DNA of 63,296 nucleotides, the filler included, from Asterionella formosa (Eukaryota), in the NCBI GenBank assembly GCA_002256025.1. It is 26 parts of 26 records of this genome, joined end to end, with 100 filler letters (N's around TTAATTAATTAA, not from the genome) between each part and the next. Parts side by side here need not be neighbours in the genome. Positions count along the whole stretch, not along the records: positions 58,703 to 60,167 come from NKIB01002324.1; 25 more parts are not named here. One strand, given 5' to 3'. The position numbers and the translations under genes are program-made. Of the stretch, positions 1,572-63,296 are shown one piece after another; position 1 is the stretch's first letter, and each line of letters opens with the position of its first letter. The notes beneath the pieces are model-generated. The model searched no databases, was not told where the DNA came from, and saw nothing but the letters and a program-made list of their open reading frames with translations.

Positions 1572-1572
1572 C

Positions 1573-3042
1573 ATCAGCGGACCCTACGCGAAATCCGCTG
1601 TTGGCAATCAGTACTGGGTCATGGCAGTGGACGACTACACAAGAAAGCGCTGGAGCTATTTCATTAAAAAGAAGAGCGATATCGGAACAGTCATTGAAAT
1701 TTTACTATCAAGTTTAGCCGGAGCCGGTCACAAGACAAAGTATGTCCGTTGCGATGACGCAGGCGAGAATACTAAACAATTGAGAAAGGTATGTGAAAAT
1801 CGCGGTATAAAAATGGAATTCACTGCCCCGCACACTCCACAACACAATGGTGTAGTGGAACGCGGTTTTGTCATTGTGCGACAGAGGGCACTAGCAATGA
1901 TGCTAAGTGCGAAACTAACAGATGAGTACCAAGGGCTATTATGGGCAGAGGCGGTACATACAGCTACACGTTTAACAAATAGTACAGTTAACTCAGTAAC
2001 TAAAAGAAGTCCCGACGACATGTTCTACGGCGAAATGAATCCAAGAAGGCCCTACAAGTTATACAAGCAATTTGGGCGCGTAGGATGGGTTACTGCAAGA
2101 CACAGCATTAAGAAATTAGACGCACGTTCTTTCAAGTGTGTCTTTTTGGGTTATTCGGAGGACCACTCCCTAGATACGTATCGTATGTTTAATCATGAGA
2201 CTAACACTGTAATCAATACACGCAATGTTAAGTGGAGTGAGTGGCATGGAACAAACGCACCTATGGACGGACTAGGAAAAATCTACAAGGACAATGCTAA
2301 AGAGAAAGTAACAGTTCAACCAGAAGCTGAAGTCAATAATGATGGATTAGATGATGATTTCTACAATGAAGATTTACTACCAGAAGTTTCAGACAACAAG
2401 GAAGATGACGACGACAACGATAAATCAACCGCAGACACTGAAAAAGGAAAATCTACCTCAAGGAGTGATGAAATTTCTGACCTAGAAAAGAGAAATGTTT
2501 TGAAGCAACAGGCAAAGTTGGAACGAGAAATGAAGAAGTTGGACTCATCGTACAATCCAACTAAAAATGTTAAATTTCCTCCAGACACTTCACTACCAAA
2601 TGTGATTGAGGAGGAAGCTTCTTTGAATAAGGAAACTGAAGTAAATTTCGTATTCAATGCAAGTCTTGCATCGGACCCAGGTTTACCAAATAGTTATGAT
2701 GAGGCAATGGTAAGACCTGATCGCAAAGAGTGGATGAAAGCTATAAAGAAAGAATTTGAAAACTTCAAAGCAAGAGGAGTATGGAAAATAGTTAAGAGAA
2801 ACAATGACGTGAACAAGAGAGCTCTTAAGACAAGATGGGTCTTCTGTATTAAGGAGGACGTGATAACTGGAAAGACAGTATACAAGGCACGGTTGGTTGT
2901 AAAGGGATATGAACAGATCCCGGGAGTTGATTTTACTGAAACATTCGCTCCTGTTGCAAGTGATGCTACAATAAAAACTGTTCTGGCTGTTACTTTGTAC
3001 TACGGTTGGATAGCGGAAGCAATTGACGTTGAAGCAGCGTTT
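1573..3042 (+). mobile_element. Ty1/Copia pol fragment: integrase core followed by RT N-terminus, open across the contig
   Basis: AVDDYTR / VRCDDAGEN / TPQHNGVVER (D,D,E); KCVFLGYS; KARLVVKGYEQIPGVDFTETFAPVA; IN-before-RT order. Confidence 0.95.
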
Positions 3043-3203
3043 NNNNNNNNNNNNNNNNNNNNNNNNNNNNNNNNNNNNNNNNNNNNTTAATTAATTAANN
3101 NNNNNNNNNNNNNNNNNNNNNNNNNNNNNNNNNNNNNNNNNNGAACCGTTGAATACATTGCCATGTTCGTTTTGTTCTAATTCGACTCTTTTTGAATTCA
3201 AAG

Positions 3204-3398
3204 TGATGTATCTAACTAGAAGTAGTAGTATTTGTTGAATATATGAGCTTATTTATTAATCCTTATGTACAACTCATTTCCTGAAGTGACATCAAAGTAT
3301 AGAATGGGTGTTAGTCGAGTTCTCTCATTATTGAATTCCGATATATTTGACATAACCCTAACTCTATATATATCTGTATCGATGTGTAGGATTGCTCA
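3204..3398 (-). mobile_element. 5' LTR (195 bp, TG...CA) of the Gypsy family seen at 58703-59950
   Basis: Reverse complement matches 59755-59950 with 6 substitutions and 1 indel; followed on the minus strand by a putative PBS and an ATG at 3164. Confidence 0.9.
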
Positions 3399-3539
3399 CC
3401 AGGTACCCGGTACCTGGTACCTGCAAGTTGGGGTCATTTTGCCGAAAATGGAAGTTGGCGCCGGCAAGCACTTATACTCGACTCGCCGCTATTATTACTT
3501 AGACATTTAGAAATCTTTAACGGTTTCGCGCTAAATTAC

Positions 3540-3680
3540 ATTATTATCAAAAAAATTTTAATGAATAATTTTCTGAAGAAACTAGTTTCCGATCCTTGCT
3601 ACAATTAGGGGGTTTTGGATTGGGGGGTTTTCCCCCCAATCGCAATTTTGAGTTTCAAGACTCTTTATTCCAGAAATCTC
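3540..3680 (+). repeat. Dispersed repeat with GC hairpin, second diverged copy at about 56875-57005 (minus)
   Basis: GATTGGGGGG-TTTT-CCCCCCAATC (3618-3641) plus flank ..TTATTCCAGAAAT is homologous to the reverse complement of the 56875-56940 region. Confidence 0.7.
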
Positions 3681-4713
3681 GGTCTGAATGTACAGAATAG
3701 CAAACAGTGGGCGGTTGTGGTAAATATGGGTATGCATCATACACCACAGGAGGACGACATAGTAGACTACATCCATCTTGCATCCATGCATGCATACCGG
3801 TATCAAATAACAATTCATAATTGTATCAGCCTACCGGGTACCACCTTGGTACAATTGACTTCATGTCAGTATATGTTTGTTAGTAAATAGCTACCGTGGA
3901 CAAGCATGTATGTTCTTGGAACATGATCTTTGCCGGTTTGGTACCGGTAACATGATGACAATGATGATACGCCTATTGTAAACAGATAAATCACGAATTA
4001 TAAACCAATTGTTGTTTTCAGCTTCTAATATTATAGAATATATCTACTTGATGTACAACGGTCATGTGCGAACTACTCAGAAATCATGGAGATATTGTCG
4101 TTGCAGTTGAACGCCATGTTGCTTCCGCCGATTTTCAATTTTAGCTATTTTACAATGAATATCAAAGCTACGTGTTCGTTTCTTTCACTACCTGCTAGCG
4201 ACACGTGTATTCATCTAAGAAACTAATAATAACGCGAAAATTTATAATCATTTAATCATGGTAATGGAAAATTTCTCATGTTCGTTCGATTCATGAGCGA
4301 TTGTATAATTCTTATACCTGGTATGTACCGGTAGTCAGAGAGCATAAATGCCGGTATTATACATATAACCGAATGTGCATGTACCGCTATATGTTTTCCC
4401 AGACAAGTGCACTCATTGGTGTCTGTGAATAAATTTTCCATTAGATCTAACGTTTTACTAAGAATTTTGATATATCAACCGCCGCGTCTGTATGATCAAT
4501 CAAATTTGTACGTGAGGTTACTAGCATGCACATGTTAGGGTATGCATAAATAATATCTCTTATTTATCAGTTACCAAATCTAATCGGTTAATCAAAATTG
4601 TTGATAGTTGATNNNNNNNNNNNNNNNNNNNNNNNNNNNNNNNNNNNNNNNNNNNNTTAATTAATTAANNNNNNNNNNNNNNNNNNNNNNNNNNNNNNNN
4701 NNNNNNNNNNNNA

Positions 4714-6282: not shown

Positions 6283-7494
6283 GATGAGTTTCAATCACTC
6301 CACTAGTTGTCAGCTTACTAGGAATGTGCCAAAATGTTTGCTCTTTGTCAAACTGATGAGCTTCGACACTAATTACAGTGGGTTCGCCTAACCACGGAGC
6401 TGCTTGGCTGATGTGGGCAATAGAAATAACTGAACCACGTGGTATGTTTCGATTAAAAGTGAGAGGAAGGTCAGGATAGCGACGAAGATATTTGGCAATT
6501 GGAAGGAGTCCCTCAAAGTGTAACATGCCAGGAGCATTTTGATATTGAGCAAGATGTTGAACTGCAGTTTGAATATCCAATCTAGTCCATTGACAGAGAT
6601 GTTGAAGCTGCCCCAACAGTGTGCGATATTCAGATCCATATCTTTTGATGGCTGTTTTCATCTCGAAGCTGGAATATGGTACACAACTTGCCAAGGCTTC
6701 CTCGTGCTGTATTCCAGCAAGCATAGGGACTATATTTGCAATGGAGAATGCTTCCTTATTCCATGTGGTACCGTAGACATATGTTAATATCTCTGAAACC
6801 ATATGGGTTTGATCAATAGTCATACAATTGGGGCTAAAGAGGAACCGAAGGCCAAAAAATGTGAGACAATTCCCAAGTTATGAACCTTCCAGTGAGATTC
6901 TAAGGTGGCAACAATGTGCTTGTACGTAGTGACAGAATGTGTTCCAATGAGGATATCATCAGTAGCTCTGGCTATAATGACATGGTGAGTATTAATAATT
7001 CCTTGATAAATGCATTGATCTGCTCGATTCATTACTAGTCCAAGTTCCCCACATATGACTTTGTCAATATGGTCTCCCCATTCACGGGATGCATCTTTGC
7101 GACCTTGAACATGTGCAAACATTTCGACTCCAAGAGTTTTCCATGGATATTTGTTACTATCCGGGAGTGTTTTAGTCATTGACGCATATTCAGTAGGGAA
7201 TCTAGTTTAAAACCATAGGATGTACTCAGGAAACATTCTGAGCCAAATGCGATTGCCAGCTTCATTGGGAGGTGCTGGGGTATTTTTAAATGAATTGCTA
7301 ATATCAAGATGGTAGAAATCATAATGCAGATATATAACAATGGCGAGAAAAACTTTGATAGACATAGCCAAGATGGTTGGTGCAAAAGATTCAGTGTAAT
7401 CTACTCCTTTGATTTGGAAACTGCCATTCACGCAGAGGCGAACTTTGCGATCATTGATTTGTTTTGCAGTATTAAGGACATGTTTGAGGACCAC
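6283..7494 (-). pseudogene. Degenerate Ty1/Copia reverse transcriptase, frameshifted
   Basis: RKVRLCVNGSFQIKGVDYTESFAP, HLDISNSF, ATDDILIG, YRTLLGQLQHL..WTRLDI in three frames. Confidence 0.85.
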
Positions 7495-7752
7495 ATCAAA
7501 GCCGTGTATTACGTGAACTGACCATCACATAAATAAGACTAGTTGATTTTGAATGCATCACATATTTTAGTTGAATACATCAAAATACGTAGTTGAAAAT
7601 ATCTATATATTATCTGAATACATCACGTTAAATATTTGATCAAAGTATCATGCATGCATTCCTGATCATCACTATATTATGTGATCACCTTCACATAATT
7701 ATTTGAAATACTTCACATAATTATTTGAAATACTTCACATAATTATTTGAAA
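7493..7752 (+). mobile_element. End of an unclassified AT-rich element with a 22-bp subterminal tandem array, abutting Copia RT
   Basis: Homologous to the reverse complement of 61833-62178; unit TACTTCACATAATTATTTGAAA about 3 copies. Confidence 0.75.
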
Positions 7753-7854
7753 NNNNNNNNNNNNNNNNNNNNNNNNNNNNNNNNNNNNNNNNNNNNTTAA
7801 TTAATTAANNNNNNNNNNNNNNNNNNNNNNNNNNNNNNNNNNNNNNNNNNNNAA

Positions 7855-8733
7855 GACGACGAGAATGAAGATGACACTGGTGCTGATGAGTTTGCCAGTG
7901 ACGATGAGGACAGTAGGATGGGTGTCTCAGGTGTTTCTCAGATTGGTGTTTCTGGAGTTACTCAGTCCCCATCAAGGAACAACAACGATTTTTCACGTGC
8001 TCCTACTAGTTCAGTTGCAAGAACGGCAACTGCCAGGCGACCACCAACATTTCCAAGAGCTCGCCAAAGCATGCAGAGTCGGGGTCAACAGTTCAGGATC
8101 AATGAGATTCTCTCATTGCTGGAAACCATTTCTACTCACCTGCCAATTGGGTCCCATGAATGGGAAGTTGTTGCATCACAGCACAACGAGAATTTCCCAG
8201 ACAAAGAACAGACAGGACCTTCACTTCGCCGAAAGTTTTCACAACTGCACAAAGTTAAGAAACCAACTGGGGACCCAAAATGCCCTGCTGAGGTGAGATA
8301 TGCCAAACAAATTTTTCGAAGAATCGAGCAACGAGCAGATGCAAGTGCTGAGATTGAATCCACTGATCTTGGAATAGAGAGAGAGAGCCCAGCCAATGAG
8401 CCCAATATTGATGAGCCAAATGGTGTTGATGATGATTTTATAGCGATTTCTGGGGAGAGTGAAGACAATGGTGGAGCAACATCTGCCGCTTATGCAAATT
8501 TTTCTGGTTCAAGATTTCCTCGACCTATGGTGTCCCCTCGATTTAGAGATAAGGCAGTGTCAAGCAATACTGGGCCTGTTGAAAAAGTTCTTTCTCTTCT
8601 TTCTACACAGTTGCTGCACAAGGCTACTCGAACTGATACTGATAACCTGCAGCAGCAGCAACAACTGCAGCAACAGAACATGATGAACATGATGATGATG
8701 TCAATCATGGCATCATTGTTGAATCAGCATGGG
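7855..8733 (+). mobile_element. PIF/Harbinger ORF1 (Myb/SANT-like DNA-binding protein), truncated
   Basis: LPIGSHEWEVVASQHNENFP..SLRRKFSQLHKVKKPTGDPKCPAEVRYAK; convergent with a DDE transposase. Confidence 0.75.
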
Positions 8734-9322
8734 GTATCATTTGGAGAATTAATTTTCTCTCACCTTTTTCTTCATAACGAAATTTGTCTTTGATTCTCGG
8801 AAATGATCCCTGAAGGCATCGCATTCCCCATTCCGACAGCTGTTGGATGGAGGTGGCTTGGCGATTCATACCAAATCTTTGTCGAGGATTACCATTTGCA
8901 TCAACATTAGTTTGATGCGATTTCAACATTGCATTTGATTTTTTAGATACAAATGCTGAATCCACAACTACTTTTTTGCCTGTATCCCTGTAAACTGTTT
9001 CAATCTGATCATAGATCGATGACCAAATTGCCATGGTGGAGTCATGTAGAACACCAGGTGCATTGAAATATGAGCAGCGAATTTTTCCATCAGGCGAAAA
9101 AAGAAACAAGTTTGTCACACTGTGTTCATGGGTCCATCCATTGTAGAAGTTGTTCTGCTGTGTTTCATTTCCAGCCCGTTGCAGGGTCACTTTCAGACCA
9201 TCCATTGCTCCCCAACAATTTGTTATAAGTGGGTATTTCTGATTGATCATGGTTGCAAACAAGGTGGCTTCGTCTGCAGTAGGCAGTCTCACAACGGCAT
9301 CTTCATGTGTCAGCAGTACTTT
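8730..9322 (-). mobile_element. PIF/Harbinger DDE transposase (DDE_Tnp_4-like), partial
   Basis: WGAMDGLK, YNGWTHEH, APGVLHDS, VVVDSAF, QQLSEWGMRCLQGSFPRIK. Confidence 0.9.
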
Positions 9323-12415: not shown

Positions 12416-12873
12416 TTTTCTTGTATCAACAACTGAAGTAGAAACGTCATCATTGCTGTCANNNNNNNNNNNNNNNNNNNNNNNNNNNNNNNNNNNNNNN
12501 NNNNNTTAATTAATTAANNNNNNNNNNNNNNNNNNNNNNNNNNNNNNNNNNNNNNNNNNNNTGACAAGAACTGACCTGACACTTCTGTCCGACTTGGTCG
12601 ATGGATGTCTCCCGCCTATTTGTGACTTCCTGCGCAACACAACAAAACTTGCCACAACGACGAATCAAACGGGTTTCGAATATGAGGAGTGGTTGGAACG
12701 AAGAGACTTGTCATAAACATGACACTTCTGTCCGACTCGGTCGATGGAGCAAAAGAAACGACACCAGCGTCCGGTTATTTGCAAATGGCTGTACTTGATT
12801 AAAAACAAATAACCATTTTGTTAGTAACTATTAATGAGTAAATAAAAATTCTTACTTCCATCTTTCCCCATAG

Positions 12874-13095
12874 GAATCAAGCAAAAACGAAAGTAGTCCT
12901 GACAAGGAATACTGTGTCGTCGATCCGGAAAGTGGGGAACTCATTCGTCTCACAGTAGCCGAAAAGGAGCGTATCTTTCTGGACGCGCTTCAGTCCTACG
13001 ATGCCGCTGGAAGGCAAATGCTCAAGGATGACGAGTTTGACCTATTGAAGGAAGATTTGCAATGGAAGAACGGATCTGAGCATATATATAGCTAA
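12874..13095 (+). pseudogene. PGRL1: Isolated PGRL1 (PGR5-like 1) exon fragment
   Basis: After the acceptor ..TTTCCCCATAG it reads EYCVVDPESGELIRLTVAEKERIFLDALQSYDAAGRQMLKDDEFDLLKEDLQWKNGS, then an early stop; resembles the PGRL1 motif FL.ALQS(F/Y)Y..G......EFD.LKE.L.W.GS. Confidence 0.75.
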
Positions 13096-13479
13096 AACAA
13101 GGAAAGACGACACAACAATGAACGTGATGGCTGGTTGTTGAGGATACCCGTATGTGATATGCATCAATCCATCATGTCACAAATCATATTATAGTGATGC
13201 ACATATCAACGCATCCGTATACTTAGATCCTATCCACTGTATAATACTATCATATTAAGTGTTGACTTTAAGTGTATACATTAAACGACAAACACATATA
13301 ATAATTAACATACTTTATGATTGCTTGATTTATTTTTTATGATGTCTTGGTAACACTTGCGTACATATTTTATCGTATTTTATTGTCATGGTACTATTTT
13401 TACATGATCATATTTTGATCAAAATTATATCATAAAAATTTGATAAAATCATCATATTTTTATGATCAATTGTATCATA

Positions 13480-14030
13480 GCTATGTGATGTACTTTATTC
13501 AATATTACGTGTCATACTTTGGTGATGTATGCATCGATGTAACCCTATCATGATATCACAGTATCATCTTATCAATCATGATGAGATGATTGGGAAGCAA
13601 ATGTATTCTGCGATGTGCTACAGGGTATATTATTATATCACGCAATTTAGTAGCGAAGTCACTCCGCCTGTAATGTACTAAAGTCGACAGTGCACATACC
13701 GGTACTCAGACGCTAATCAGGTTTGAGGCAACGGACAGCGGTTCCAACGAGCGAATGATGATACCACGGGTACCAATTTTTCCAACGAAAGAACTTGTCT
13801 CTCTATTGATGAGGATGACACGGACACGGACACCGACATTTTCAGGAGCAAACAACAATGAAGAGACCCACTTCGTCTGCGTCGCTCTATTGATGGTAAC
13901 AAAGATGCGGACAAGTTCAACAGTGAATACAAGAACAACATACCATTGAAAACCAGTCGACAGTGTCTGCACGCACACGCCAAGCAAGTTTGAGGCAACG
14001 GACAATTTCAACAAGCAAATGACGATACAG
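13480..14030 (-). repeat. Interspersed repeat family A (copy 1)
   Basis: Shares GAACTTGTCCGCATCTTTGTTACCATCAATA, CCGTTGCCTCAAAC and a downstream AT-rich block with 43045-43877 and 46178-46722. Confidence 0.85.
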
Positions 14031-39911: not shown

Positions 39912-41377
39912 CCACCACCAGCATCCATTCCTATTTTTCCACCAGAAAAGCCTCCATCTCCTGAAATTGCAATTTTCCCTCCAAACATCCCTTCTCCCCG
40001 CCGCAGTACTCGTTCTACACGCGGAATCGGGCCCACTCGTTTTGTACCAGGAGGATACCTTTCCAATGCATTCTTTGCTGGTCTTGTTGAATGTTCTGAA
40101 GTCAGTGCGTCTGATTCTGCAATGGCCTATATGTGTGCTGTAATGACCGACCCTGTCACTGGACTTCTTGAGTGTTCTGATCCTCTTATCTACGCCGCCA
40201 TGGCACGTAAAATGGACCCTGATAATCCTCGCTATCACGAGGCTATGTCTGGGCCTGATTCCGAATTGTTTCGTGAAGCTATGGTCACTGAAGTCACTGC
40301 TTTAACCAAAAAGAATACTTGGACGCTTGTGCCCCGTTCATCGGTTATTAACCATAAGGTTCTACCAGGCACGTGGGCCTTCAAGCGCAAGCTCTTTCCA
40401 GATGGTCGTGTTCGCAAATGCAAAGCACGGTTTTGTGTACGCGGGGATCTACAGAAGGAAGGTATTGACTATTTTGAAACCTATGCCCCTGTGGTCCAGT
40501 GGTCTACTGTCCGTGCGCTTTTGGTCATGTCCGTGGTTCTGGGCCTTGAGACACAACAAATTGATTTTTCGAATGCATTTTGTCAGGCCGACATTACAGA
40601 AGAACTCTATGTTGAGACGCCCAAAGACTTCGGTGACCTTCAAGGTCGTGACATGGTCATGAAGCTGAATAAATCTCTCTATGGTACAAAACAGGCCCCG
40701 CGTACCTGGTTTCTTAAACTTAAAGAGTGTCTTGAACATCGCGGGTTCCGCCAATCTGAGCTTGACCCCTGCTTTTTATCCATGCTGATATGGTATACCT
40801 TAACTATGTCGATGAATCCATTCTCATCGGTCGGGACAAGTCCCTTATTGATGCCATGATTACCAATTTGTCCCTCGAGCTTGAACTTACTCGTGAGGGC
40901 GACCTTGCCTCGTTTTTGGGCATCCAAATTGACAGGTCATCGCTTACTGCTCCCCTCAAGTTAGCACAACTGGGACTTATCACACGGATCTTAGAAACTA
41001 CTGGTCTTGTTCACGGGTCTTCCTCCCCTACTCCTGCAACACGAGAACCTTTAGGTACTGATTCTACAAAGCTCGCCCAGACATTGCCTTCGCTGTGCAC
41101 CAGTGTGCTCGATTTTCACACTGTCTGCGTGCCTCACATGAAGTGGCTCTTAAGAAAATTTGCCGTTATTTGTGTGGTACTCTAAACGAGGGTGTCATTT
41201 TTACACCTATATCGGAGTTTATATTCGACTGTTTTGTTGATAGTAACTTGGCTGGTCTTCTTGGAAGAACCGAAAACTCGAATTATCCCGTTTGCGCCAA
41301 ATCCCGCACTGGTTATGTCCTTACTCTTGCTGACTGTGCCCTTTTATGGGTTTCTTAACTAAACTACAAACCACTTT
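39912..41377 (+). pseudogene. Ty1/Copia RT-RNaseH fragment with frameshifts and an internal deletion
   Basis: KARFCVRGDLQ..ETYAPVVQWSTVR, QIDFSNAF, KSLYGTKQAPRTW, YVDE (for YVDD), KSRTGYV. Confidence 0.92.
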
Positions 41378-43044: not shown

Positions 43045-43877
43045 CATAGAATACGAAAATGTAAACAGACTGCTATTATCATACATACGTTATAGTTATA
43101 GATGATTCTGATTACAATTTCTTTTTCATATTGCTTGTTTCCGCATTTGGGATGCTGTTCTTGTAATGTATGACACCTGAACTTGTCCGCATCTTTGTTA
43201 CCATCAATAAAGTGACAAGTGGCTCTCATCATTGTTGTTTGCTCATGGAAAACTCGCCGGGTATCCTATCATCAACAATAGAGGGACGAATCTCCTTCAT
43301 CAATAATATAATTGTGGTTTGCCACAGGAAAAGTTTGATATCCGTATTGTCATTTGCTTGTTGGAACTGTCCGTTGCCTCAAACCTGCTTAGCGTGTGTG
43401 TGTACACGCACACTGTCAACTTGTTTTCATTGGTATGTTATTCACTGTATTCACTGTGTTGAACTTGTCCGCATCTTTGTTACCATCAATAAAGCGAAAA
43501 GTGGCTCTCGTCTTTGTTGTTCATGCTCCTGAAAAAGCCGGTGTCCGTCGTCATCATCAATGGAGGGACAAACAAGTGTCCTTCATCATCATGGTTTGCC
43601 GCTGGGAAAATTGGTATCTGTATCGTCATTCGCTTGTTGGAACTGTCCGTTGCCTCACCTGCTTTGTGTGTACATTGCAGTGACTTACCAGACTACTAAA
43701 GTGCGTTTTATAATATCATACTCCGTAGTAGCTACCATGCTGAATACAGTTCCCCATCAACATTGAATGATTGATAAGATGATAATGTGATATCACAATA
43801 AGGGGTTACTTCGATGCGTATGTCACCAAAATATGATACTTAATATTGAATGATGTTTACCACACCGCTATGATAGG
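43045..43877 (+). repeat. Interspersed repeat family A (copy 2) with an internal ~280-bp duplication
   Basis: GAACTTGTCCGCATC at 43179 and 43461; homology ends at the Copia LTR. Confidence 0.85.
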
Positions 43878-44511
43878 TGTTAAATTGTCTAGTTGAAATA
43901 TCACAGATCTTACTTTTAAGATCTCTAAAGCTGAAAACGTATTTTCACTTTACACTTTGTTAATATTGTGAGCTTTCTGTTAATAGTCTATCTAGTCTTG
44001 TTCTTGCCTGATTACTCATGTAATCCCGAACAAGACTTCTCACACTTTCCTTGATCCCGTCAAAATGATCTTGCTTACTTTGACAATAAGTAAGCATATT
44101 CATTTGACAATAAGTGAGCAGCACTTATTCTTTTGACAATAAGTGAGCATCTGATTCACTTGTCAATAAGTAACATCTCCAGTCATTTGTCAATAAGTAA
44201 ACATCTCCAATCCAGTCATTTGTCAATAAGTAAACATCTCCAGTCATTTGTCAATAAATGACGAGATGTTTTTGGGTCTTGGTTTCTAATCACTACTAAG
44301 AATATTGATTCTCGATTCGTTGGATTCCATATATTTTATCACCCTCCCTGATCTCGAAACCAACAATCCATGGTCCCATTCATAATGTGGGTTGCATGAG
44401 TGTCATGAATTTTCTGAGTGACATTCTTTGAAAGTAGGTCTGCAGGATTCTTTAAAGTATTCACATAGTCAACTCTAATATCCCCAGCCTTCACCTTTTC
44501 TCGAATGAAAT
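43878..44511 (-). mobile_element. Copia 3' end: RNase H C-terminus, PPT and 464-bp 3' LTR (44341-43878)
   Basis: Manual translation FIREKVKAGDIRVDYVNTLKNPADLLSK..DQGG*; PPT AGGGAGGG directly before TG; LTR TGATAAAAT...AATTTAACA with internal tandem repeats at 44080-44260. Confidence 0.88.
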
Positions 44512-46177: not shown

Positions 46178-46722
46178 CACATAGCTATAGTTATAGAATG
46201 ATTCTGATTAGAATTTCATTTTCATATCGCTCGCTCGTTTCTGCATTTGGCATACTGAACTTGAATTAACTATTGAACTCGTCCGCATCTTTGATACCAT
46301 CAAGAGAGCGAAAGCAAGTGGCTCTTTTCATTGTTGTTTGCTTGTAGAAAGAATTTGATATCCGTATCATCATTTGCTTGTTGGAATTGTCCGTTGCCTC
46401 AAACCTGCTTGGCGTGTGCGTACACACACTGTCGACTTGTTTTCATTGGTATGTTGTTCTTGTATTGTATTCACTGTTGAACTTGTCCGCATCTTTGTTA
46501 ACATCAATAGAGCGACAAGTGGGTTTCTTCATTGTTATTTGCTCCTGGAAAAGTCGGTGTCCGTGTCATCCTCATCAATAGAGAGACAAGTTCTTTCGCT
46601 GGAAAAATTGGTACTCATGGTATCATCATTCGCTCGTTCGAACCATTGTCCGTTGCCTCAAACCTGATTAGCGTGTGAGTACCGGCATGTGCACTGTCGA
46701 CTTTAGTACATTACAGGTAGAG
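46178..46722 (+). repeat. Interspersed repeat family A (copy 3)
   Basis: Close match to the reverse complement of 13665-14030 up to ..TTACAGGTAGAG. Confidence 0.85.
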
Positions 46723-59754: not shown

Positions 59755-59950
59755 TGAGCAATCCTGCACATCGATACAGATATATATAGAGTTGGGGTTA
59801 TGTCAAATATATCGGAATTCAATAATGAGAGAACTCGACTAACACCCATTCTATACTTTTGATGTCAGTTCAGGAAATGAGTTATACATAAGGATTAATT
59901 AATAAGCTCATATATTCAACAAATACTACTACTTCTAGTTAGATACTTCA
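59755..59950 (+). mobile_element. Gypsy 3' LTR (196 bp), preceded by the PPT GGGAGAG
   Basis: TGAGCA...CTTCA; TATATATA at 59781; homologous to 3204-3398. Confidence 0.92.
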
Positions 59951-60021
59951 CCTGGTACCAGGTACCATACTTAAAATGAAACATTACCAGGTACCTCAGG
60001 TGGTCTACTGTACTCCGACTA

Positions 60022-60167
60022 CCGTATACTTCATTGTCCTGGACCCCCCCTATGGTTGCTGGACCCCCCTGTACATTTTTCTCGAGGTGGAACCAAACAC
60101 CCAATAATTTTCTTGTCATAGACAAAGTAACGTGCTATAATTCTTTTTGTCCTCGTAGGCACTAGTA
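60022..60167 (+). mobile_element. Left end of a second MITE copy
   Basis: TA followed by CCGTATACTTCATTGTCCTGGACCCCCCC..., near-identical to 54535-54681. Confidence 0.9.
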
Positions 60168-61832: not shown

Positions 61833-62178
61833 TCTAGAATTATGTGAACGAAATTACAGAATTACGTGAAGTATTTCAAATAATTATGTGAAGTATTTTC
61901 AAATAATTATGTGAAGTATTTCAAATAATTATGTGAAGTATTTCAAATAATTATGTGAAGTATTTCAAATAATTATGTGAACGTGATCACATAAAATAGT
62001 GATGATCAGGAATGCATGCATGATACTTTGATCAAATATTTAACGTGATGTATTCAGATAATATATAGATATATTCAACTACGTATTTTGATGTATTCAA
62101 CTAATTCATGTGATGCATTCAAAATCAACTAGGCTTATTTATGTGATGGTCACTTCACGTAATACGCGGCTTAGATGT
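61833..62178 (-). mobile_element. Second copy of the AT-rich element end with the 22-bp tandem array
   Basis: GTGAAGTATTTCAAATAATTAT about 5 copies; homologous to 7493-7752. Confidence 0.75.
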
Positions 62179-63127
62179 TAGATGCAAAGAAGCTCGAGAT
62201 TAATGTAATGCATCAGAAGAATTCTCCAACGATGATGCTGCCCTGCAAAAGTGTAAAACGTAAAGTAATAAGAAAATAATTTTTGTAGTATTAACGGAGT
62301 AAAAATAAACACGGTTTGGGGGGAAATATATACATGTACAGATAGAAAAATATGCACTGTAAGCCACCGCTATGCAATAATCTTAGTGACTTTGGAAAAA
62401 TTATTCCTTCATGGCTAGATACACTGAATCAAAACTGATTCCTTAATAGTATAGCAGAGAGCATTGTCTAACATAAGCTTTGTACTTGCGTCAAGTTTTG
62501 ATCGTTGAATTACATAAATATTTTTAGTCGAAAGATAGAGTAAAATAGCGGTGGCTTACAGTTTTTAAGTGGTACCTGGTACCAGGTACCAGAAACAATG
62601 GCGCGCCAAAAAATTCCCTTGACGACGAAGCACAAAAATGAATAATGTACGGTAGGAGTACAGTGGTAACAGGTACAGTACCTGGTACCAGTACCTCTAG
62701 CTACTTGCACATAGGTCCATCATGTTTCTCTGGTGCCAGGTACCTGGTACCACATAGTACCTGGTACCTGGTACCAGGTACCATCGACCAGTAGTCGAGA
62801 ACACATTTCTGAACATTCGACCAGCACAGCACAACAATGCCTCGTGAGTTATCAGGAGTACGGTACCAGGTACCAGGTAGGAGTACCAGGGTACGTAGAT
62901 CAACACCACTATACGTTTACTACTATTTTATGCATTACTGGTACTCACTATTCTACAAATAGAATTCCTAATCATTTCTGTTATTCAAACCGTGCTTGTC
63001 ATTTTGTTGGCCTTCAACAAAATAACCGTGGTATTATTAGCTTACCGGTAATTCTCCCTTCCCTTTCTTGAAACTTACCAACCGATACTACTTACAGCAC
63101 CTCAATCAATATTGATTGTGCACCACC

Positions 63128-63296
63128 ATGCCAGTCGATTTCTCCCAGTTCAAAGCCGAACCTGCCACTAAGACCATTACTGGTTGGCTTTCTGTCAAGA
63201 AGCGAGGCAGGGATGATTTGCAGATTGAAAAGGCCAAGAAACAAGCGGAACTTGACCGCAAACGACGCAAGGCCAAAGGAAAAATGGTTGTGACAG
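63128..63296 (+). CDS. 5' end of an unknown basic protein (MPVDFSQFKAEP..KKRGR..)
   Basis: CACCACCATG start context; frame open to the window end; GGTACC clusters 250-550 bp upstream. Confidence 0.45.
   Translation, partial: MPVDFSQFKAEPATKTITGWLSVKKRGRDDLQIEKAKKQAELDRKRRKAKGKMVVT

Follow-up and report, generated by a model that had tools for sequence, protein, structure and literature searches.

Most LTR retrotransposons and retroviruses find their integration sites through chromatin or host tethers and show weak sequence bias; integration directed by DNA sequence is rarely seen in LTR retrotransposons. Within the Ty3/Gypsy type, Ty3 of yeast and Tf1 of fission yeast land precisely upstream of genes, with coding sequence spared: Ty3 is targeted via TFIIIB at Pol III start sites, and Tf1 via Sap1 at Pol II promoters. 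Chromoviruses, the chromodomain-bearing Ty3/Gypsy elements, are targeted to heterochromatin via their C-terminal chromodomain. The excerpted text of a 2017 review (PMC5408687), which also mentions tethering of Ty3/Tf1-type integration, describes strong sequence-specific integration as exclusive to the errantivirus group, in which Drosophila errantiviruses and their derivatives (gypsy, ZAM, and Idefix subgroups) (the derivatives having two ORFs) use the palindromic targets TATA, CGCG, and ATAT, and ZAM-type elements favor GC-rich repeats. For HIV-1, the same excerpts give a weak palindromic consensus, GT(A/T)AC. Diatoms carry the GyDi elements of Thalassiosira and Pseudo-nitzschia, Ty3/Gypsy elements with the order PR-RT-RH-IN (excerpts of PMC2806351), and Gypsy target choice is not addressed in the excerpted part of a 2025 preprint on diatom transposons. 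Here we describe a diatom Gypsy family that prefers the site GGTA-CCWGG-TACC, with both LTR edges associated to the base with half-sites of that word.

The window, by which we mean the whole 63,296-nucleotide stretch of DNA analyzed, is made up of 26 contigs, with runs of N plus TTAATTAATTAA between them. Twenty-five of them are 1,464-1,471 bp long, and one (contig 10, 14131-38243) has 24,113 bp. Genes are densely packed on the 24-kb contig, as long ORFs with few introns, and include a sugar transporter, Sof1, a GDSL lipase, a JmjC protein, and WD40 proteins. Since the best named matches of Sof1 are all diatoms (Mayamaea, Nitzschia, Fistulifera, Trieres, Chaetoceros, and Cylindrotheca, at 62-68% identity), we take the host to be a diatom, represented by a fragmentary assembly; metagenome proteins without a name reach 90% identity. 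Many mobile elements lie on the small contigs (Copia-type RT, Mutator, and a Harbinger-type DDE transposase), among them the following.

Contigs 2, 5, and 12 (1572-3042, 6283-7752, and 39912-41377): Copia-type integrase/RT.
Contig 18 (49311-50776): Mutator-like transposase.
Contig 6 (7853-9322): DDE_Tnp_4 transposase and a DUF6818 protein.

Several contigs are related to one another. Contigs 17 (47745-49210) and 19 (50877-52342), which carry a peptidase M3 gene fragment, are mutual reverse complements with 3 differences in 1,466 bp (99.8%) and may be two haplotypes or one contig filed twice. The ends of contigs 26 (61833-63296) and 5 have 260 bp in common at 96%. A repeat family with internal tandem structure occupies contigs 9, 14, and 16 (12562-14030, 43045-44511, and 46178-47644; 72-89% identity) and recurs in a metagenome contig (L020, oriented positions 1-870) at about 77-81%.

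Two of the small contigs, 24 and 3, carry opposite ends of a Gypsy-type element, each with its LTR running directly into a host GGTACC array.

58703-60167: contig 24.
58703..59725, + strand: C-terminal 341 codons of pol (integrase), open up to the contig start.
59729..59754, + strand: spacer and polypurine tract, ending GGGAGAG, immediately 5' of the 3' LTR.
59755..59950, + strand: 3' LTR, 196 bp, TG...CA (TGAG...TTCA).
59951..59955: CCTGG, candidate 5-bp target-site duplication at the 3' junction.
59951..59966: host GGTACC array CCTGGTACCAGGTACC, abutting the 3' LTR.
59990-59995: third GGTACC beside this LTR.
60022..60167, + strand: end of a MITE (TA-flanked inverted-repeat element), 71 bp from the LTR.
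3143-4612: contig 3.
3143..3203, - strand: element leader directly after the 5' LTR, CTTTGAATTCAAAAAGAG...
3204..3398, - strand: 5' LTR, 195 bp, 96.4% identical to the 3' LTR of contig 24.
3399..3403: CCAGG on the + strand, CCTGG in element orientation, candidate target-site duplication at the 5' junction.
3399..3421: host GGTACC array of three units, abutting the 5' LTR.

The integrase frame on contig 24 closes with a TAA stop at 59726-59728 and holds a zinc-binding H2C2 domain (Pfam Integrase_H2C2, E 1.9e-10), a catalytic core, and a GPY-containing C terminus. On contig 3, the reverse complement of 3399-3421, GGTACCAGGTACCGGGTACCTGG, stands immediately before TGAG. Alignment of the two LTRs gives 6 mismatches and 1 gap over 196 columns. 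The LTR ends, both junctions with CCTGG, the six substitutions and one indel, and the open integrase frame had all been claimed in the earlier note, and each was confirmed in the sequence. The MITE end beside the contig 24 element is 98.7% identical to a complete 649-bp copy on contig 21 (54535-55183), whose terminal inverted repeats start CCGTATACTTCATTGTCCTGGACCCCCC with TA on either side and which looks like a Stowaway-type MITE.

The exact edge of the LTR can be read in two ways. The base just outside it (G before TG, C after CA) is identical in host flanks and at element-internal junctions, so that GTG...CAC ends with a 3-bp duplication (CTG) can also be read; this reading and TG...CA with the 5-bp CCTGG both rebuild the target GGTACCTGGTACC. 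The second base out is A or T at internal junctions versus G or C at host junctions; the LTR is therefore no longer than that. No contig in the window or among the metagenome loci described below carries both ends of one copy, and the overlap of left and right half-sites suggests a target-site duplication of 5 bp, CCWGG, or possibly of 3 bp.

The window copy shows the integrase part alone, and the rest of the element is seen in a metagenome contig (L002) with a complete interior and a single 1194-aa pol. The domains of this pol follow the Ty3/Gypsy order of protease, RT, RNase H, and integrase (RVP 148-240, RVT_1 394-551, RNase H 614-735, and Integrase_H2C2 860-915). Direct TG...CA LTRs, with a polypurine tract before the 3' LTR, are present; the LTR recurs on contig 3 and in 19 metagenome loci, the spacer and polypurine stretch of contig 24 precedes it in 10 loci, and the leader of the contig 3 copy follows it in 15. 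Pfam searches with an E cutoff of 0.01 found no chromodomain in either the window integrase or the L002 pol, and at this level the earlier description of the integrase as chromodomain-less holds for both proteins. L002 has no ORF between pol and LTR that could be env, and pol stops just before the polypurine tract. The window element is thus a Ty3/Gypsy-type LTR retrotransposon without a chromodomain.

Hundreds of metagenome proteins are related to the window integrase, and the best named relative is from Nitzschia inconspicua (52% identity); a 489-aa protein 99% identical to it heads a cluster of 189 sequences. In the genome_contigs and viral_contigs collections, no confirmed relative of the integrase was found. 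Matches in the PDB include lentiviral and foamy-virus integrases.

The leader that immediately follows the 5' LTR opens with C TTTGAATTCAAAAAGAG and has no TGG-type tRNA primer site; leaders without a TGG-type start were also observed in L003, L013, L019, and others. Self-priming by pairing of leader TTGAATTC with LTR GAATTCAA was considered and rejected: subfamily B of the element has GAACTC at this LTR position with the leader unchanged, and the 8-base match between leader and LTR is not kept in this subfamily. Eight metagenome contigs (L002, L003, L006, L008, L010, L011, L013, and L016) run from the integrase end through the polypurine tract and one LTR into the leader. These one-LTR joints are most simply an assembly collapse of two LTRs; tandem copies or one-LTR circles would have the same appearance.

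If contigs 3 and 24 held the two ends of one insertion, CCTGG would be merely its duplication, and the decisive evidence must therefore come from other copies. We searched metagenome contigs with a 19-base word from the conserved LTR end, which returned 20 loci; the same word had no match in genome_contigs or viral_contigs. One locus (L015) is a chance match, and the other 19 belong to the LTR family, either with LTRs 79-98.5% identical to the window copy or as terminal pieces. Twelve of the 19 are without host flank (the eight one-LTR joints, one ending right after the LTR, and three starting inside it), which leaves seven with a host junction. These are given here with their scores against the word GGTACCWGG.

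L018, 5' junction: GGTA-CAAGG, 8/9.
L017, 5' junction: GGTA-CCAGG, 9/9.
L005, 5' junction: TCAA-CTTGG, 5/9.
L012, 5' junction: GTTA-CCTGG, 8/9.
L001, 3' junction: CCTGG-TAGG, 7/9.
L020, 3' junction: CCAGG-TACT, 8/9.
L004, 3' junction: CCAAG-TAAC, 7/9.

The flanks of the seven junctions have nothing in common except GGTACC-type words, which the flanks of these copies carry as the window flanks do. LTR identity to the window copy spans 98.5% to below 80%, and several subfamilies thus behave alike. The one exception is that the L020 flank runs into the L005 flank through a 55-base contig overlap, which places two elements about 4.5 kb apart. One further junction is a misfit: the sequence before a 5' LTR fragment in L020, TTGCAGACG, scores 2/9. 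Neither L020 nor L004 has pol nearby, and their LTR pieces lie inside a rearranged repeat, so the three junctions of these two loci are possibly secondary.

The structure of these two loci can be described further. L020 (oriented 1175-2613) and L004 (1169-1698) hold a common repeat in opposite orientation, 83-94% identical, that contains the LTR pieces. In L020, 1.15 kb of unrelated sequence separates an LTR start from an LTR end, and the two lack a matching duplication. Both loci were also examined as possible solo LTRs, and neither has an upstream copy of the candidate duplication at the LTR start.

We asked how strongly the seven junctions depart from chance. The motif GGTACCWGG was fixed from the two window junctions, which were left out of scoring, and the 9 bases abutting the LTR were scored in the metagenome junctions, with the right side reverse-complemented. 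The sample is small, with nine assembled junctions, seven of them independent of the hypothesis. Matches were found at 52 of 63 positions (exact P = 4.6e-15), against a background mean of 2.43/9 over all window positions, 0.34% of which reach 7. The result is similar for the five junctions that have a complete LTR next to element interior (37/45, P = 4.3e-11) and when the misfit L020 junction is included (54/72, P = 1.1e-13). Exact GGTACCWGG 9-mers make up 0.06% of window positions, and two independent perfect matches in the window would be very unlikely to arise by chance. The earlier note had claimed sequence-targeted integration, and this claim is supported by seven independent junctions with unrelated flanks, small as the sample is. 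It had also proposed an examination of LTR flanks in further copies, with unrelated junctions as the outcome that would count against it; on the small scale achieved here, the junction sequences were alike.

An artefact could in principle produce the same pattern, if assembly chimeras joined LTRs to the motif or if misplaced LTR ends made the flank motif part of the element. The base that host and internal junctions share on each side (one base per side may belong to the LTR) would be in keeping with misplaced ends. However, host and internal junctions disagree at the second base out, and a test of 8-mers without the ambiguous base next to the LTR still gives 45/56 matches (P = 2.4e-13). Furthermore, several independent assemblies, and Logan contigs of public runs as well, supply the junctions, and we find an artefact hardly credible.

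In every one of the nine half-sites the positions A, C, W, G, and G are the same, and T occurs in eight. The two bases at each LTR edge are invariant, and their partners across the duplication vary (3/5 and 3/4, numbers too small to carry meaning). This register bears on the possibility that there is no integration preference at all, with either random insertion followed by survival in promoter arrays or open chromatin alone accounting for the pattern. The arrays are intergenic and 5' of genes, where insertions may be tolerated, as such an account would have it. However, they cover less than 1% of the window, and five positions at constant distances from the LTR edge in 9/9 half-sites are a register to the base beyond what selection or chromatin would give; we regard this explanation as very improbable.

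Public sequencing runs bear on the same junctions outside the statistics. Contig 24 was matched in algae, freshwater, and riverine metagenomes and in organism A (18 rows from 10 studies). In Logan contigs of four runs, a branch from LTR end to leader was present in all four, and contigs also continue from the LTR end through CCTGGTAC and then diverge. Run X1 has at least 22 and at least 20 such contigs, with consensus agreement of 0.49 and 0.47, and its mixed continuations begin with further GGTACC units. Runs X2 and X3 have at least 1 and at least 2 contigs, respectively, that pass the LTR end through CCTGGTAC. In X9, among the matches listed, a contig leads into the LTR start from GGAGTACATGC, for a score of 6/9 if the displayed letters are adjacent. 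On the assumption that each contains the LTR, we treat public-run contigs that pass the LTR end as supporting evidence.

The reading in which contigs 3 and 24 are ends of one insertion, with CCTGG as its duplication and by itself no sign of targeting, can draw on several observations. The 5-mer is identical on both sides, the joined flanks would make a plausible five-unit array, and the contigs come from the same assembly. However, 2 of the 7 independent junctions also have CCTGG as their 5-mer, so that chance identity is not rare, and one insertion leaves those seven junctions unexplained. Many diverged copies exist, with 62,576 run X1 contigs on the 1,465 bases, versus 23 to 69 in three other runs. 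The LTRs of a single insertion begin identical and then gain private mutations only, whereas 3 or 4 of the 7 differences here (at 59794, 59884, and 59900, and the indel at 59857) are variants common to other copies: L018 agrees with contig 24, and L003, L013, or subfamily B agrees with contig 3. Both states at 59884 and 59857 were also seen in run X1. The two LTRs thus probably descend from different source copies. Short-read assembly of a multi-copy family may yield mosaic contigs, which weakens the argument from LTR differences. Among the public-run matches listed, no empty-site contig joins the flanks of contigs 3 and 24; the host flank at 59977-60025 has little depth in X2, X9, and X3, and a stretch lacking cover counts neither for nor against either reading.

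On this evidence we consider a single insertion improbable and two separate insertions likely, as judged from the LTR sequences. The independence of the two insertions, toward which the earlier note leaned, is accordingly favored by the shared variants but falls short of proof. The combined reading, that the contigs are ends of a diatom Gypsy family (PR-RT-RH-IN, no chromodomain or env, LTRs of ~196 bp) preferring GGTA-CCWGG-TACC and represent two insertions, is in our judgment a good deal more probable than its negation.

The preferred word is itself conspicuous in the host genome. The window has 72 GGTACC sites versus 10.4 predicted from composition, about 7-fold over expectation, and 16 of 24 pairs of adjacent units are spaced by A or T. 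The arrays thus have a 7-bp period (GGTACC plus A/T), and they lie almost exclusively in intergenic stretches 5' of genes, often between divergent ones; contig 26 is dense in them, with 11 units. Full 13-mers number 16 in 60.8 kb, and 16 of 136 CCWGG sites lie inside one. On the 24-kb contig, 18 of 19 GGTACC sites are outside long ORFs, and 16 of 19 lie 5' of the nearest long ORF, at a distance of no more than about 400 bp. The GGTACC array is probably a lineage-specific promoter element. In the main text of openly accessible articles, we found no report of the GGTACC motif or of a diatom Gypsy target preference; papers retrieved for GGTACC with diatom promoters concerned cloning-site uses only, and none was found to contain the 13-mer GGTACCAGGTACC.

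The earlier note had the element targeting upstream-associated GGTACC arrays. The 5' position of the arrays holds, but arrays as such are not the target: L005, L004, and L012 sit in single or degenerate words, and the element therefore follows the word. Since this word occurs in 7-bp-period arrays upstream of genes, many copies would land in arrays. GGTACC sites may serve the element as a safe harbor, as the earlier note supposed.

We envision the following mechanism. A two-fold symmetric integrase complex would cut each strand between A and C, with a stagger of 5 bp, and repair of the gaps would duplicate CCWGG. The element would then have GGTA-CCWGG as its left flank and CCWGG-TACC as its right flank.

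Whether the integrase itself reads the site or a host tether places it is close to an even call. In the tethering account, a host DNA-binding protein on GGTACC promoter arrays tethers or positions the integrase, which leaves the bases unread. The 5' location of most GGTACC sites on the 24-kb contig is consistent with this account, and their 7-fold excess suggests a bound factor; moreover, base-pair-precise tethered integration is known for Ty3. However, insertions also occur at degenerate half-sites without GGTACC (TCAA-CTTGG in L005 and CCAAG-TAAC in L004), where only the core beside the cut is kept. The preference mirrors itself about the duplication, which direct contact by a two-fold complex would predict, and no candidate factor is known. 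We therefore think tethering by a host protein unlikely, if not strongly so, and favor direct reading by the integrase because of the symmetry about the duplication and the degenerate half-sites that keep the core beside the cut.

A fuller version of direct reading is that the integrase reads the 13-bp palindrome GGTACCWGGTACC, which is also the host promoter-array motif, so that the element would have a DNA-guided safe harbor at promoters without a tethering domain. We put this forward tentatively, as a proposal with somewhat less than an even chance of being right. If it is, no LTR retrotransposon known outside insects would have a longer or stricter sequence specificity, and site-directed integration in algae would have a natural template. 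A diatom family with five invariant positions in each half-site would carry sequence-directed integration into a distant eukaryote lineage and would tie a mobile element to a conspicuous promoter-array motif without earlier description. How an intasome reads target DNA could be tested with the integrase and a 13-bp oligonucleotide, and directed insertion in diatoms is a possible use.

Compared with known systems, the diatom family resembles more than one of them. Like Ty3 and Tf1, it is of the Ty3/Gypsy type, but in those elements host proteins set the site and there is no conserved DNA word at the cut, whereas the diatom family has one. With chromoviruses it has superfamily and directed integration in common, but it is without their chromodomain. 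Homologs of the window integrase include those of lentiviruses and foamy viruses, and HIV-1, as described in the excerpts of PMC5408687, likewise has a 5-bp duplication and a palindromic preference centered on W, which fits a symmetric intasome. The retroviral consensus is weak, however, whereas five positions of the diatom site are invariant in 9/9 half-sites. GyDi elements, compared here by description, have the domain order of the window family, and target-site preference is unmentioned in the excerpts of PMC2806351. Errantiviruses, again as excerpted in PMC5408687, are like the diatom family Ty3/Gypsy-type elements with short palindromic targets, and a palindromic preferred target at the cut sites is present in both; this is a likeness of behavior, not of membership. 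Errantiviruses use a 4-bp target and duplication and frequently have env, whereas the diatom family has a duplication of probably 5 bp and no env was found in it. With no env, this probable duplication length, and a diatom instead of Drosophila as host, the element is not an errantivirus, and its conserved word, GGTA-CCWGG-TACC, is about 9 to 13 bp long.
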